Assembly (NCBI GenBank): GCA_963825135.1
Contig: CAWGRW010000009.1
Coordinates: 1,440,001-1,504,000 of the forward strand
Source of the DNA: an uncultured bacterium
GTDB taxonomy: Bacteria > Desulfobacterota_D > UBA1144 > Nemesobacterales > UBA2774
Direction of reading: 5' to 3'
Length of the DNA stretch: 64,000 nt
Shown: positions 3,018 through 47,065 of the stretch, one piece after another
Layout of the letters: every line of letters starts with the position of its first letter
Numbering within the stretch: position 1 is the first letter of the stretch
The notes under the pieces: model-generated
What the model saw: only the letters and a program-made list of their open reading frames with translations
Told to the model about the DNA's origin: nothing
The model's database searches: none
Program-made: the position numbers and the translations under genes

Positions 3018-3065
3018 GCCCATTAGTTTACAGCACCCGGGAACGTTCACAAATTAGGGCTTTCA

Positions 3066-3094
3066 TTGCGCTTTACCGCCGTTACTTTTATACT
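3066..3094 (+). promoter_or_regulatory. sigma70-type promoter for thiC
   Basis: TTGCGC-N17-TATACT about 60 nt upstream of thiC. Confidence 0.6.
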
Positions 3095-3136
3095 ATAAGT
3101 TGGCGGATTTGTTGTCCCGCTCTGCTTTTTATCTAG

Positions 3137-5059
<1,923 letters not shown>

Positions 5060-5174: not shown

Positions 5175-6785
5175 TCACCTGAAAAACGGAAAAAACCCGC
5201 CTCCTCCGGTGCTCCCCGTGCTTCGTTTTATTGCCTGGCTCGCGCGGTTTGTAATCTTGCATGTGGACGAGATCTCCGCCCTGGCTTGCATGTAAACGGT
5301 CCTTCCGCCGAGACTCCTCGACAGGCTTACATTTATAGTTGCTTTGCCGGTCGAATCCGCGGAAGCCGTACCCAGCAATGCCGGACTTCTCAGGTCAAGC
5401 GCCTTCCCCTTGCATGCTCCTGTTGAAATGGAGGTCCTCCCTGTGGATGTCGAAGAGTAGAACCTGACAAGTGAGCCCCGCGGCGCGCCTGTAACGGTCA
5501 ATGAATTTCTGACCCCCGCCGTTCCGGGAGTGAACTTGGAAAGAGTCGCGCTCGCTGACGGGGGCGCGGTTGGTTTCGGAGTAGGCACAGGCGTGGGAAC
5601 AGGGGTGGGCTGAGGCAAGGAGGCTTTGTCTACAATTTTAAATATTTCTCCGTCGAGGTCGATTATGTATATCTCGCCTTTGTCGTCTTCACCGAACGAT
5701 GAGATATTGTCGATGGTCTGTCCGGTGATAGGTTTGAGCTCGGCGGTACGATCCGTGAATTGCGTGACGGTATTCCCGCTCCTTACGAAAGACCATATCT
5801 TGCCGCTACAGTAATCGGCGAAGAAATATGTTCCGTCTAGCGCCGGTATCGCCGTCCCTCTGTACACGTAACCACCGGTTACGGCGCAGTTCCCCCCAGC
5901 GTGCGTGTAATCATAGATCGGCTTTATCAACACGGGGTCGTCGCATGTGCACCCGGATAGACCCGTGCACGCGTTACCCTCCATGCAGCGCCAGCCGTAA
6001 TTCTCCCCGCCCGTACTCGTTCCCGCCTGGAAGCTGATTTCTTCCCTCGTATCCTGTCCTACGTCGCCGATATAGAGATTGCCGTTAAGCCTGTCGAAGC
6101 TGAACCGCCATGGGTTTCTAAAACCCTCGGCCCAAATAATATCGAGAACGGAGGGGTCGCCGTTAAAGGGGTTGCTCGCGGGGGCCGTGAATATAGTGCC
6201 GTTTCCGACGTCGATCCTCAGCAGTTTACCGAGTTCCGTCTGCCCGTCCTGCGCCCTGTTGCCGGGGTCATACCCGGAGCCGCCGTCTCCCGTGCCTATG
6301 TACAGATAGTCGTCATTCGGGCTGAATGCGAGCATCCCGCCGTTGTGGTTACTGAAGGGCTGTGTGACGGTCATCATTATCTGCTCGCTGCTCGCATCCG
6401 CAACATCTGGGTTCGCCGATACCTTGTAACGGGCAATAACCGTATTTCCGGAATTATCCGTATAGTCAACGTAGAAATAGCCGTTACTGGCATAATTCGG
6501 GTGAAAGGCGAGACCGAGAAGACCCCTCTCGCCGCCGCTTGAGGCTTTGGAGTCGATATTTAAAAAGGGCGTGGCGAGCACAGCCCCGTTCTTGATTATC
6601 CTGATTGTCGCCGAGTTTTGCTCGACTATGAAGAGACGGGCCGAATCCCCGGCAGGGGTCGTCAGAAACAGGGGCTCGGAGAAGCCGCCTGCGACTTTAA
6701 CCGTGGTGAGCTCTACACCCCGCGAACTGTAGACGGTAAATACTGTTAATGCCGAAATTATCAGGAATTTCAGATACGCGCTCAT
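5175..6785 (-). CDS. Secreted PQQ-dependent sugar (glucose/sorbosone) dehydrogenase-family beta-propeller with Pro/Thr linker and extra C-terminal domain
   Basis: Signal peptide; GERGLLGLAFHP, NHNGG, GFRNPWRFSFD, GDVGQ, GENYGW motifs; PQPTPVPTPVPTPKPT linker. Confidence 0.88.
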   Translation of the reverse strand: MSAYLKFLIISALTVFTVYSSRGVELTTVKVAGGFSEPLFLTTPAGDSARLFIVEQNSATIRIIKNGAVLATPFLNIDSKASSGGERGLLGLAFHPNYASNGYFYVDYTDNSGNTVIARYKVSANPDVADASSEQIMMTVTQPFSNHNGGMLAFSPNDDYLYIGTGDGGSGYDPGNRAQDGQTELGKLLRIDVGNGTIFTAPASNPFNGDPSVLDIIWAEGFRNPWRFSFDRLNGNLYIGDVGQDTREEISFQAGTSTGGENYGWRCMEGNACTGLSGCTCDDPVLIKPIYDYTHAGGNCAVTGGYVYRGTAIPALDGTYFFADYCSGKIWSFVRSGNTVTQFTDRTAELKPITGQTIDNISSFGEDDKGEIYIIDLDGEIFKIVDKASLPQPTPVPTPVPTPKPTAPPSASATLSKFTPGTAGVRNSLTVTGAPRGSLVRFYSSTSTGRTSISTGACKGKALDLRSPALLGTASADSTGKATINVSLSRSLGGRTVYMQARAEISSTCKITNRASQAIKRSTGSTGGGGFFPFFR

Positions 6786-6860
6786 AACGTAAACCCCCTC
6801 AGCCGGTCCTCATATCCGAGAGCAAAGGGAGACTGTGACGTATCCGTGGATTCGCCCCTA

Positions 6861-6955
6861 CTTCGGTAACCAGTCTACCTTAGGCCCTTTCGAGCCCTTA
6901 GGTCTTGGGTTTTGCGTCCCGTCTTTTCAGGCGGTTTGCCGTTTCGGATGAGGAC
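6861..6955 (-). ncRNA. Cyclic di-GMP-I (GEMM-I) riboswitch
   Basis: Minus strand reads CCGAAACGGCAAACCGCCT-GAAA-AGACGG-GACGCAAAA-CCCAAGACCTAAGGGCTC-GAAA-GGGCCTAAGGTAGACTGGTTACCGAAG: GGCAAACC, GNRA-capped P2, GACGCAAA, CCTAA receptor and GGTTACCG hallmarks, in the 5' UTR of 5175..6785. Confidence 0.93.
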
Positions 6956-7140
6956 TTTATTTTGTATATACAAATGATAGCACCTAAATTAATTCTAATC
7001 AACAATAATTTAGCACGCGTTCCGGGGCTATCGAACCGGTTGCCCTTCCGGAATATTCGGTCATATTGTATATAAACGCATCTGCGGCGGGGCCGTGATT
7101 CGGCCGGTTCGTCAAATTGCAAAAACACGGAGGGACGTCG

Positions 7141-24204: not shown

Positions 24205-25521
24205 TCAGGAATTCATCATATTGAAGAATTCTTTGTTGGACTTCGTTCCGCTCATCTTGTCGAGGAGAAATTCCATCGCTTCCACGGTGTTCATCGGGCT
24301 CAGCACCTTCCTGAGGAGCCACACCTTGTTGAGCACTTCCGGGGAAAGGAGGAGTTCTTCCTTCCTCGTACCGGAACGCTGCAGGTCGAGCGCCGGGAAA
24401 ACCCTCTTGTCGGCGAGCCTCCTGTCGAGGTACGCCTCCATGTTGCCTGTTCCCTTGAACTCTTCGAATATAACCTCGTCCATCCTGCTGCCGGTGTCGA
24501 TAAGCGCGGTCGCGATGATAGTGAGGCTGCCCCCTTCTTCCGTGTTCCTTGCCGCGCCGAAGAACCTCTTCGGTCTCTGGAGCGCGTTTGCCTCCATGCC
24601 TCCGGACAGGACCCTTCCGCTGGCGGGGGTTACGGTGTTGCTTGCGCGGGCAAGCCTGGTCAGGCTGTCGAGAAGGATGACCACGTCCTTTCCATGCTCG
24701 ACGAGCCTCTTTGCCTTCTCCAGCACCATGTCGGCGACCTGTATGTGCCTCTGCGGCGGCTCATCGAACGTCGAGCTTACCACTTCGCCGTTGACCGAAC
24801 GTTCCATATCCGTTACTTCCTCGGGGCGCTCGTCGATCAGAAGCACTATAAGAGCGACTTCCGGGTGGTTTCTCGTTATCGCATTGGCTATCCTCTGGAG
24901 CAGTATTGTTTTACCGGTCCTCGGCTGAGCCACTATCAATCCCCTCTGCCCCATGCCTATCGGAATAAACAGGTCGAGTATCCTCGTGCAGAAATCGTTC
25001 GGATCGTATTCGAGGAATAATTTCTTATCCGGGTGGAGAGGAACGCGGTTCTCGAACGCCACCCGTTCCCTGCATACCTCGGGTGATTCGAAGTTTACCT
25101 CTTCTATTTTCAGGAGAGCAAGGTTTTTCTCGCCTTCCCTGGGAAGCCGCACCTGTCCGCCGACCGTGTCTCCTGTTTTCAAATTAAAGGAACGGATCTG
25201 TGACTTTGAAACGTATATGTCATCCGGTCCGGGGAGGTAGCTGTATTTGGGAGACCTTAAGAATCCGTAGCCCTCGGATAATATTTCGAGCACGCCTTCC
25301 GCGTATATTACGCCTTCTTTCTCGCTCTGGGCCTTCAGGATAGCGTAGATGATGTCCTGCTTCGTCATCCGCGAGGTCTCTTCGATCTCCAGGTCCCTGG
25401 CCATCTTCATGAGCTCCGCGCTCTTCTGGTTTCTGATGTCGTTCAAGTGTAGGAAATGTGATACTTCCGATACAACTTCCTTGTCTTCGGGTTTTTCCCG
25501 TAATTTGGTTGCTCTAGCCAT
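24205..25521 (-). CDS. rho: Transcription termination factor Rho
   Basis: [61 protein letters not shown]. Confidence 0.98.
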
Positions 25522-45423: not shown

Positions 45424-46023
45424 TTATCCGTCACAGGCGGGGTCACCGCTTCCGGATTCGAACGTGCCGTTTGCTCCCGAGGCCTGCGTTGTCACTGTAC
45501 ACTTGATGACCTTGTCGGTGAATGCGGAGAAATCTTTCCTGCCGTTAACCCTCGCACTTGTCATAGAAGCCTCCCATCCGAAGTCTCCTTTGAGGGACTG
45601 AGCATCGGTGCCGGCGTCGTCGCTCCATGACAGACAGTATCCTGCTTTGGGATCGTTACAATCGGCGGAGCTCGAGGGGGTGCCGTCGTTAGTAACCGCG
45701 TCTTCGAATGTAGAATCTAATAGTGCGTCTGCGGGATCGCTTGTTCCGCCCGGGTCTCTGAGTGTTCCCGCGGTGCCGAGAGATCCTATGAGGTTTGTAA
45801 AGTTCCTGTCACCGTTATCGTCCAGGTCCTGTTCGAAATACTCATATTCGGAGTCTTTTAGTGTCTGCAGGGCCTTCCGCGCGTTAGCTTCATTTGAAGA
45901 GATACGGGCTTTTAACAGGTTAGGTATAGCGATTGCGAGCAGGATACCGATGATAGCCGCCACTACGAGAAGCTCGATGAGGGTAAAGCCGTTTTCAATA
46001 TTTCTATTTCTCTTCCTGATCAT
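45424..46023 (-). CDS. Type IV pilin-like protein, copy 2
   Basis: Prepilin site G|FTLIELLVV, hydrophobic helix, NEANARK, four Cys. Confidence 0.92.
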   Translation of the reverse strand: MIRKRNRNIENGFTLIELLVVAAIIGILLAIAIPNLLKARISSNEANARKALQTLKDSEYEYFEQDLDDNGDRNFTNLIGSLGTAGTLRDPGGTSDPADALLDSTFEDAVTNDGTPSSSADCNDPKAGYCLSWSDDAGTDAQSLKGDFGWEASMTSARVNGRKDFSAFTDKVIKCTVTTQASGANGTFESGSGDPACDG

Positions 46024-46049
46024 ATTATCGCCCTTTATAGGTAATTATT

Positions 46050-46065
46050 AGCAATATACATACCA
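46050..46065 (-). promoter_or_regulatory. sigma54 promoter of pilin copy 2
   Basis: Minus strand TGGTATGTATATTGCT, GG-N10-GC. Confidence 0.75.
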
Positions 46066-46190
46066 CAACCGGCGCTAATATATCTGGTTTACATGCTTTC
46101 GTAACAGGCCCTCATTGTTATATAAATGGATACTCGAAATCGTATCGAGGGTAAGAATATTCATATGATACATTTCTTCAGAAAACGACT

Positions 46191-46205
46191 TGACAATATT
46201 TGTCA
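46191..46205. promoter_or_regulatory. Enhancer-like palindrome (candidate PilR-type site)
   Basis: TGACA-ATATT-TGTCA about 130 bp upstream of the sigma54 site. Confidence 0.7.
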
Positions 46206-46389
46206 TAGTGATGCGATTTCTGTTATCCGGGTGGGTCGAAGAAGAAATTGAAAGATAACATTCTTCCGAAAAACACAGCGGTGAGCTATTGTCAAGTTGT
46301 CAATTTTATCATGAATACCAAGGGAATAATGGATCAATCGAATAGAACTATGGTCGTCGATTGGAGTAACGGTATACTGTTTCGGGAAT

Positions 46390-46425
46390 AAAAAAACGGC
46401 GGGTTTATTATAAACCCGCCGTTTT
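46390..46425 (-). terminator. Intrinsic terminator after pilin copy 1 (bidirectional form)
   Basis: AAAACGGCGGGTTTA-TTA-TAAACCCGCCGTTTT with T-runs on both strands. Confidence 0.9.
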
Positions 46426-46459
46426 GAGTTTTTCTTTCTGTTGATTATCTATCAGAGTG

Positions 46460-47065
46460 TTAATCGCAGCCGGGTGCAGTACGATGGGCCTCGAATGTCC
46501 CGACAGCTCCGGTAGCTTGTGTACTTAATGTGCATCTTATAACGCCGTCTCCGTATACGGAGAAGTCCCTTCTGCCGGTCTTGTTAAAGCTCGACATACT
46601 GTTCTGCCAGCCGAAGTCGTCAAAACCGCCTGAAGCATTTGCGGTGAATGCCGCGCCGGTCGAATCATTAAAATCACTTTGTATGCAATAACCCGCCTTC
46701 GGGTCAGCACAGAGTGCGCCTCCTGTACTTAATGCGCCCTCGAAGCTGTCGTCAACAAGAGCGTCCTCTTCTACACTTGTACCCCCGGGATCACGCAAAG
46801 ACTGAGCAGTTCCTAGTGCACCAATTTGATCGGTAAAATCTCTTCCACCCTGATCGTCCAGGTCCTGCTCGAAATACTCGCCTTCGGCATCCCTGAGCGT
46901 CTGCATGGACTTTCTGGCGCTGGCTTCGTTCGCCGACATTCTCGCCTTTATAAGGTTGGGTATCGCGATCGCGAGCAGTATGCCGATGATTGCCGCTACC
47001 ACTAGAAGTTCGATAAGCGTGAAACCCTTCTCTCCCTTTTTAACTCTGTTTAACTTGCTTAACAT
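46460..47065 (-). CDS. Type IV pilin, copy 1 (likely major pilin)
   Basis: KG|FTLIELLVV, NEASARK, four Cys; GGAGGT RBS, own promoter and terminator. Confidence 0.93.
   Translation of the reverse strand: MLSKLNRVKKGEKGFTLIELLVVAAIIGILLAIAIPNLIKARMSANEASARKSMQTLRDAEGEYFEQDLDDQGGRDFTDQIGALGTAQSLRDPGGTSVEEDALVDDSFEGALSTGGALCADPKAGYCIQSDFNDSTGAAFTANASGGFDDFGWQNSMSSFNKTGRRDFSVYGDGVIRCTLSTQATGAVGTFEAHRTAPGCD

Follow-up and report, generated by a model that had tools for sequence, protein, structure and literature searches.

A class I c-di-GMP riboswitch that probably acts as a translational OFF switch precedes a gene for a predicted secreted propeller protein in a Dadabacteria-like lineage

A GEMM-I aptamer lies in the leader of a propeller gene

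We analyzed a 64,000-nt stretch of contig CAWGRW010000009.1 (the window), which belongs to a Dadabacteria-like lineage known from metagenome-assembled genomes (MAGs) and in which an RNA leader with the features of a riboswitch for cyclic di-GMP (c-di-GMP) precedes a gene encoding a predicted secreted beta-propeller protein (Table 1). All coordinates are window positions and refer to the minus strand unless marked otherwise. The entire window was scanned with cmscan against Rfam 15 at the gathering threshold, which is 35 bits for the c-di-GMP-I family RF01051 (GEMM-I). The sole match was to this family, at 6950-6862 (-) with 69.0 bits and an E-value of 2e-11, and it is full length, covering model positions 1-87 of 87 with no truncation. 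An earlier reading of the same DNA (the original prediction) had assigned the leader to GEMM-I and had proposed an Infernal scan as a check, which hence came out positive. The aptamer is separated from the start of the gene by ~77 nt.

Table 1. Positions of the riboswitch elements, the flanking signals and the regulated gene in the window.
Feature	Position	Strand	Description
Promoter-like site	6974..7002	-	-35 TTGATT (7002-6997), 17-nt spacer, TG (6982-6981), -10 TATCAT (6979-6974)
c-di-GMP-I (GEMM-I) aptamer	6862..6950	-	Rfam match of 69 bits, consensus fold, covariation
P1 5' strand	6945..6955	-	GUCCU (6955-6951), AU (6949-6948), CG (6946-6945)
P2 hairpin	6939-6914	-	GAAA tetraloop at 6928-6925
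P3 hairpin	6911-6868	-	CCUAAG receptor-like internal loop
P1 3' strand	6854..6865	-	CG (6865-6864), GU (6861-6860), GGGGC (6858-6854)
Conserved CGGAUACG element	6839..6846	-	can pair with codons 4-6 (CGUAUCUG, 6777-6770)
Pyrimidine-rich anti-Shine-Dalgarno candidates	6818..6831	-	CUCCCUU (6831-6825), CUCUC (6822-6818, shares 2 nt with the distal strand)
Distal strand UCGGAUAUGAGGAC	6806..6819	-	alternative partner of the P1 5' strand
Ribosome-binding site	6783..6800	-	Shine-Dalgarno GAGGGGG (6800-6794), 8-nt spacer, AUG (6785-6783)
Regulated gene, 536 amino acids	5175..6785	-	signal-like helix, GSDH/HHIP-type propeller, Pro/Thr linker, Ig-like beta-sandwich, Gly/Phe tail

The cmscan alignment places G6940, A6913 and C6866 at model positions 11, 38 and 83, the equivalents of G20, A47 and C92 in the Vibrio cholerae riboswitch Vc2, in agreement with the earlier claim that G, A and C occupy the three ligand-contact sites. 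According to published work, G20 makes a Hoogsteen contact to G-alpha of the ligand, C92 forms a Watson-Crick pair with G-beta, and A47 is a ligand contact as well (PMC5888326). The spacing of 27 nt between G6940 and A6913 is the same as that between G20 and A47 in Vc2 and between G12 and A39 in Vc1 (PMC4744006). Using the constant offset of 9, we infer that C6866 is the counterpart of C92, and that C6916 and G6875 correspond to the interhelical C44/G83 pair.

To describe the conservation of the leader we use an alignment of the window leader with five orthologous leaders (L001-L005, see below), together referred to as the six leaders. G, A and C are invariant at the three contact positions in all six, as are C6916 and G6875, and the aptamer core alone folds to the consensus in each of them. 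The bound-state structure pairs 88% of the alignment cells, compared to 28-50% for slid partners, and its covariation score of 0.305 was matched by 1 of 500 shuffles; both partners vary in seven of its pairs, including four in P2 and P3 of the aptamer. By every feature that can be checked computationally, the element is a member of RF01051, and it is almost certainly a class I riboswitch, which would bind c-di-GMP.

The riboswitch is conserved with its gene in one clade

Homologs of the regulated protein in the protein database come from MAGs of Dadabacteria and Thermodesulfobacteriota. A single scan of species-representative genomes yielded 79 homologue loci, all of which were then scanned with Rfam. 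Five of these (L001-L005), from Dadabacteria or Thermodesulfobacteriota MAGs, carry GEMM-I upstream of the gene, with 47.8-75.7 bits, on the gene strand and ~80 nt before the start, and the proteins they encode are 63-78% identical to that of the window, which places all riboswitch carriers among its closest relatives. The survey of related genomes that had been suggested at the outset thus recovered the same riboswitch at the same place in five orthologous loci. In L001 the gene is also flanked by a divergent open reading frame (ORF) of 334 amino acids and a convergent one of 633 amino acids; these are known by size alone and resemble the neighbors in the window in size and orientation.

None of the other 74 loci gave a GEMM-I match in Rfam, amongst them L006, for which the sequence holds no upstream DNA. 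At L021, from a Dadabacteria MAG (62% identity, 548 nt upstream), and at L007 (55% identity) no Rfam match was found even at E ≤ 1. Degenerate GEMM-I copies before L021, L007 and L006 were considered and discarded on the same grounds, as there is no Rfam match at E ≤ 1. The region upstream of the L021 gene (1-560) is AT-rich and unrelated to the window leader. As the five carriers are among the closest relatives while L021 and L007 are without the element, the association of riboswitch and gene is clade-specific and conserved, and it is not universal even within Dadabacteria.

The leader contains competing pyrimidine- and purine-rich strands

The promoter-like site upstream of the aptamer scores 9 of 12 matches and includes the TG. 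All six aligned leaders preserve its TTG and TGnTAnnnT blocks, and an equivalent site is called in L002. Given this conservation, transcription probably starts near 6967, ~12 nt before position 6955, so that 6955, which had been taken to be the 5' end of the leader, is probably not its first nucleotide. A perfect 14-nt palindrome, TTTGTATATACAAA, at 6974-6961 (-) takes in the final base of the -10 element as well as the predicted start of transcription. It is partly kept in the orthologous leaders (GYATATACA) and would form a small 5' hairpin if transcribed; a protein regulator acting in addition to the riboswitch could also use it as an operator.

Three strands of the leader are rich in pyrimidines, namely the P1 5' strand GUCCUC followed by CUCCC and then CUCUC, and three are rich in purines, namely the P1 3' strand GGGGC, the distal strand GAGGAC and the Shine-Dalgarno sequence GAGGGGG. 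P1 is interrupted and consists of GUCCU:GGGGC, AU:GU and CG:CG (5+2+2 pairs); at its junction AAAC together with G6940, and A6867 together with C6866, are unpaired. The outer five pairs (GUCCU:RGGRC) are formed in 100% of the lettered cells of the six leaders, and changes in P1 are one-sided only, with U-A/U-G alternation at two positions. The purine run of the P1 3' strand resembles a Shine-Dalgarno sequence and can pair with CUCCC when P1 is open. AUCCG (6949-6945) with CGGAU (6846-6842) was discarded as another form of P1, since such a helix and GUCCU:GGGGC could not be nested; codons 4-6, moreover, are a better match for the CGGAUACG element.

Extended to 6944, the P1 5' strand (6955-6944, GUCCUCAUCCGA) doubles as the 5' strand of a long-range helix, in which GUCCUC:GAGGAC and AUCCGA:UCGGAU form two blocks of six Watson-Crick pairs, separated by an AU bulge of 2 nt. 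The complementarity of GUCCUCAUCCGA with UCGGAUAUGAGGAC across such a bulge is therefore as the original prediction had described it. Duplex energies were calculated with RNAduplex, with the downstream leader dinucleotide-shuffled 500 times as a control; the window duplex has -18.6 kcal/mol, a value that 3 of the 500 shuffles reached. The helix is also part of the centroid fold of the window leader, and at the homologous site it is the top duplex of the 5' strand in all six leaders, including L004 and L005, whose distal strands read differently (ACGGAGACGGACUG and ACGGACACGGACUG).

The pairing that would cover the Shine-Dalgarno sequence is less uniform. It had been attributed to CUCCCUUUGC (6831-6822), and this claim stands in part: the strand is present, and its CUCCCUU pairs with GAGGGGG in the minimum free energy (MFE) structure obtained when P1 is forced, but it is not conserved in L003-L005 and does not hide the Shine-Dalgarno sequence beyond chance (see below). 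In the alignment, the CUCCCUU:GAGGGGG helix is paired in 82.9% of the cells, with one pair changed on both sides. The orthologues conserve a CCUC that adjoins the distal strand, and this CCUC appears to be a better anti-Shine-Dalgarno candidate than CUCCCUUUGC. The pairing of CGGAUACG with CGUAUCUG is seen in the P1-forced fold only, where it closes a large stem that encloses the Shine-Dalgarno sequence and the AUG. It is paired in the four close leaders, amongst them L003, where the changes of C to U and of A to G both keep G-U pairing, and it is not alignable in L004 and L005.

Forcing P1 lowers the accessibility of the Shine-Dalgarno sequence

The accessibility of the Shine-Dalgarno sequence was compared between a bound-like state, with aptamer and P1 forced, and a state with the long-range helix forced, in the six leaders and at two 3' cut-offs, giving 12 comparisons. 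The bound-like state is the less accessible one in all 12 (6/6 leaders), which is the outcome that the proposed OFF logic implies for constrained folding of this region. In leaders cut at AUG+3, the unpaired probability of the Shine-Dalgarno sequence is 0.03-0.44 with aptamer and P1 forced, compared to 0.69-0.89 with the long-range helix forced. In the window leader, the MFE structure of the bound-like state contains CUCCCUU:GAGGGGG and has CGGAUACG on codons 4-6, with the Shine-Dalgarno sequence unpaired at 0.03, while forcing of the long-range helix lets GGGG of the P1 3' strand pair with CUCC(C) and leaves the Shine-Dalgarno sequence unpaired at 0.58-0.69.

To assess the dependence of accessibility on P1 more quantitatively, we calculated a coupling value, defined as free minus P1-forced Shine-Dalgarno accessibility, with 100 shuffled platforms per leader as control. 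The values for the six leaders are 0.56, 0.56, 0.68, 0.42, 0.17 and 0.61, and they were reached by 0, 0, 0, 2, 23 and 2 of 100 shuffled platforms, so that coupling is beyond chance in five of the six. The coupling test replaced the claim that an anti-Shine-Dalgarno strand hides the Shine-Dalgarno sequence more than expected by chance, which was dropped after a negative shuffle test. The Shine-Dalgarno sequence is unusually open in the free state, a degree of openness reached by 0, 0, 0, 0, 25 and 1 of 100 shuffles.

In stepwise MFE folding of the growing leader, P1 is part of the MFE structure just after its synthesis in five of the six leaders; the exception is the window leader, whose P1 has two G-U pairs and is never in the MFE structure. 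The long-range helix is complete in all six once the distal strand has been synthesized. Between the two forced states there is an MFE gap of -1.2 to +9.7 kcal/mol. For the dissociation constant (Kd), a value of 2.2 nM is given in Table 4 of PMC5888326, and picomolar values appear in PMC6140456. By our own arithmetic, 1 uM ligand at a Kd between 2.2 nM and the picomolar range supplies roughly 4-7 kcal/mol, and the gap should therefore be within reach for most leaders, in an estimate that omits tertiary contacts.

Taken at face value, the models describe the following switch. With no ligand, the weak, interrupted P1 would be outcompeted by the 12-bp long-range helix between 6955-6944 and 6819-6806; the 3' strand of P1, now free, would pair with CUCCC, and the Shine-Dalgarno sequence would be left single-stranded, allowing the gene to be translated. 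Binding of c-di-GMP at G6940, A6913 and C6866 would hold P1 shut and release the distal strand, upon which pyrimidine strands would fold back onto the Shine-Dalgarno sequence; pairing of 6846-6839 with codons 4-6 would add a second helix that closes around the start site, and initiation would be blocked. We consider it likely that the leader of the propeller gene is such a translational OFF switch of the Vc2 kind. The OFF logic of the original prediction is thereby borne out in silico by the strand that P1 shares with the distal partner, by the 12 accessibility comparisons and by the coupling beyond shuffles in five leaders, and it is the predicted direction of regulation in vivo.

Points against the OFF switch and alternative explanations

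Several observations count against the picture of an OFF switch built on strand exchange. The long-range helix contains no pair with changes on both sides, and equally good pairing was obtained in 244 of 500 shuffles; this lack of compensatory covariation is due to the conservation of both strands, and the helix therefore rests on conserved complementarity and energetics only. The long-range duplex of the five orthologues, at -14.0 to -16.4 kcal/mol, is marginally stronger than that of shuffled controls, 27-60 of 500 of which reach these values. Sequestration of the Shine-Dalgarno sequence in the P1-forced state is not beyond chance, since shuffled platforms equal or surpass it in 24, 68, 22, 142, 83 and 56 of 150 cases. 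With 21 nt of coding sequence included, the Shine-Dalgarno sequence of L001, L003 and L004 is mostly paired in both states. L004 deviates further: its coupling is not significant (23/100 shuffles), and in stepwise folding its long-range helix is in the MFE structure at one length only. The window aptamer itself carries a C-A mismatch in P2, as seen in the cmscan alignment. Furthermore, neither the ligand nor the contact between tetraloop and receptor enters nearest-neighbor folding, and the six leaders amount to only some three to four independent lineages.

The reverse direction is conceivable on the basis of the same strands. In an ON switch, ligand-held P1 would take the anti-Shine-Dalgarno-like GUCCUC off the Shine-Dalgarno sequence and translation would rise with c-di-GMP; CCUC of the P1 5' strand is indeed complementary to GAGG of the Shine-Dalgarno sequence, and there are GEMM-I precedents for activation, for example Vc1 of gbpA (PMC4744006, PMC11705072). 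The top partner of the 5' strand is, however, the distal strand and not the Shine-Dalgarno sequence in 6/6 leaders, forcing of P1 raises accessibility in 0 of the 12 comparisons, and the unusual openness of the free state relative to shuffles (see above) points the same way, so that we regard an ON switch as quite improbable. It is unlikely, too, that the switch acts primarily on transcription or mRNA stability, through intrinsic termination, Rho-dependent termination or decay, instead of directly occluding the ribosome-binding site. L002 contains a small terminator-like hairpin, UGCGGAUACGUCGCA, followed by U5 (GCUCCUUUUU) at 2438-2462, between the aptamer and the Shine-Dalgarno sequence, and L001 has the identical sequence; but its 5-bp stem is weak, and in L001 it does not look regulated, because it is present in both forced states. 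In the window leader no terminator-like site is called between the aptamer and the AUG (6862 to 6785), and the counterpart of the L002 hairpin retains 2-3 pairs with only 3 U after it. An intrinsic terminator was accordingly rejected as the conserved expression platform, as the hairpin occurs in L001 and L002 only. The window does encode rho, at 24205-25521, and untranslated leader RNA could therefore be terminated secondarily.

The remaining question concerns the ligand. The mismatch in P2 and two non-canonical pairs in P3 of the window aptamer, together with the lack of GGDEF, EAL or PilZ genes among the 55 window ORFs scanned, would fit an aptamer that senses 3'3'-cyclic GMP-AMP (3'3'-cGAMP), is bispecific like GEMM-Ib, or has decayed into a non-binding relic. 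The 3'3'-cGAMP riboswitches of the GEMM-Ib type, such as Geobacter Gs1761, share the fold and the Rfam family but have A at the equivalent of G20, and wild-type Vc2 strongly prefers c-di-GMP, binding cGAMP only at 10 uM compared to picomolar c-di-GMP (PMC6140456). All six leaders have G at this position, which by the G20/A20 rule favors c-di-GMP over cGAMP, as had been proposed. Against decay, the whole leader is conserved across orthologues with 63-78% identical proteins, and the two non-canonical P3 pairs are themselves conserved and sit in the receptor-like internal loop. We therefore judge a different ligand or a relic to be very improbable, and c-di-GMP remains the probable signal of the OFF switch.

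The regulated gene encodes a putative secreted protein with an HHIP-like propeller

The N-terminus of the regulated protein reads as a signal sequence, with a hydrophobic helix at residues 2-19. Its sole Pfam match is GSDH (PF07995), with 131.6 bits compared to a gathering threshold of 25 and an E-value of 5e-38. In a structural model built with AlphaFold from an alignment of 33 sequences (mean predicted local distance difference test score, pLDDT, of 78.4), residues ~26-387 are predicted to form a six-bladed beta-propeller. Signal sequence, PF07995 match and propeller model together agree with the earlier description of the target as a secreted, sugar-dehydrogenase-like protein. The NCBIfam model TIGR03606 gave 50.9 bits, below its cut-off of 434.55, and the protein was therefore not filed in that subfamily.

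We compared the protein with solved structures by sequence and by fold. In a phmmer search the propeller of vertebrate hedgehog-interacting protein (HHIP) is the closest solved relative (1e-28), while bacterial sugar dehydrogenases that depend on pyrroloquinoline quinone (PQQ) follow at 2e-16 to 4e-8. Foldseek gives an E-value of 2.5e-24 and 26-27% identity for HHIP, compared to an E-value of ~1e-17 and 17-23% identity for soluble PQQ glucose dehydrogenase (sGDH) and aldose sugar dehydrogenase (Asd). By sequence and modeled fold the protein thus appears closer to the HHIP propeller than to proven PQQ enzymes. Of the earlier label of a PQQ-type propeller, the six-bladed GSDH-family propeller holds and the closeness to PQQ enzymes does not; "PQQ-dependent" is a family label only here, and cofactor use is putative. 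In the alignment with HHIP, HDP of HHIP is matched by a retained RNP motif in the protein, a motif that we take to be important for PQQ. No pqq genes were found among the Pfam hits of the window.

HHIP, sGDH and Asd/YliI have PF07995 and the six-bladed propeller in common with the protein, which differs from them in the additional Pro/Thr linker, Ig-like domain and Gly/Phe tail. The C-terminal Ig-like beta-sandwich (residues ~411-522) reaches a pLDDT of 92.3 when folded alone. It has no Pfam match and no PDB match at a Foldseek E-value ≤ 0.001, showing only generic Ig-like resemblance, and at 0.90 only unnamed Atlas clusters were matched. The last residues of the protein form a Gly/Phe tail, GGGGFFPFFR; the tails of close homologues vary, being Gly-rich with basic ends and terminating in F, P or R, and the tail is missing in a group of proteins with 55-57% identity (P0041 and others). 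Near the gene there is a single strong terminator-like site, at 5208-5177 (-), which has a 9-pair stem with many G-T pairs followed by a T-run and sits in the last 11 codons, that is, in the sequence encoding the GGGGFFPFFR tail. Tail and terminator may constrain each other.

The genomic neighborhood consists mostly of housekeeping genes

Downstream, thiC (3149-5059, +) is convergent with the riboswitch gene, which is therefore monocistronic, so that the riboswitch controls a single gene. The divergent upstream neighbor encodes a zinc-type alcohol dehydrogenase family protein. The remainder of the window holds housekeeping genes, namely amt, glnD, nadABC, rho, ruvABC, tolQR, argS, carB and greA.

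Two side observations concern these surroundings. thiC is commonly a target of thiamine pyrophosphate (TPP) riboswitches; in the gap of ~100 nt between thiC and the divergent tsaD (window 3050-3200, +) no TPP riboswitch match was found at the Rfam gathering threshold. At 45424-47065 (-), two adjacent ORFs of ~200 amino acids each carry a type IV pilin-like N-terminal methylation motif (PF07963), and they are possible surface-lifestyle genes.

A known type of switch with a previously undescribed target gene

The Cd1 riboswitch of the Clostridioides difficile flagellar operon acts through intrinsic terminators. It belongs to the same aptamer class as the element described here and is likewise an OFF switch (PMC4744006). 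For Bc1, a GEMM-I riboswitch of the Bacillus cereus group, two rho-independent terminators have been named, whereas the window leader has none. Vc2, in the tfoY leader of Vibrio cholerae, shares with the window leader the Rfam family, the G20/A47/C92 contacts and the architecture of GNRA tetraloop and receptor, and a published account presents it as an OFF switch, with translation repressed by the P1 helix that forms upon ligand binding (PMC11705072). The two differ in that Vc2 serves a TfoY regulator in Vibrio, as opposed to a secreted propeller in a Dadabacteria-like MAG lineage. In the window, moreover, P1 is interrupted, four unpaired bases precede the G20 equivalent, the platform is short (77 nt), and the long-range helix reuses the entire 5' strand of P1. 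Since there are many GEMM-I riboswitches, and OFF switches at the level of translation such as Vc2 have already been described, the RNA itself adds little; it is a clear but fairly ordinary representative of a known switch type, and the new element is the target gene. The compact 77-nt platform with its three pyrimidine and three purine strands nevertheless offers a clean model of a strand-exchange design, which lends itself to an easy heterologous reporter test.

With respect to the target, Table 4 of PMC12530212 lists c-di-GMP riboswitches of a Methylophaga strain beside pqqA, PEP-CTERM, TonB-receptor and thrombospondin genes. Going by this table, secreted proteins with C-terminal sorting-type tails are typical GEMM-I cargo, and the present gene fits this description. 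Apart from the pqqA entry in that table, the portions of the literature searched held nothing relevant on c-di-GMP riboswitches with PQQ or sorbosone dehydrogenases, and likewise nothing relevant on c-di-GMP in Dadabacteria. No riboswitch target of this kind was thus found in the literature searched, in line with the original prediction, to which such a propeller was not known as a characterized c-di-GMP output.

A more far-reaching interpretation, which we put forward as speculative and on balance doubtful, is that in one Dadabacteria/Thermodesulfobacteriota clade an HHIP-like propeller jointly gained the Ig-like domain, the Gly/Phe/Arg-rich tail and the OFF riboswitch, and would serve as a surface or extracellular factor of the planktonic phase. 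The tail would then possibly be an undescribed sorting or anchoring tag. Absence of the tail in the 55-57% identical proteins and of the riboswitch at L007 (55%) is compatible with joint gain and is not proof of it; L007 possibly encodes one of these tail-less proteins. If joint gain were true, the protein could be, for example, a glycan-oxidizing or matrix-remodeling enzyme that is shut off on sessile commitment, and the system would represent a new class of c-di-GMP output and the first regulatory handle on an uncultured phylum. Independently of this, the riboswitch provides sequence evidence for c-di-GMP signaling in a Dadabacteria-like lineage represented by metagenomes only, and it names one concrete output gene.

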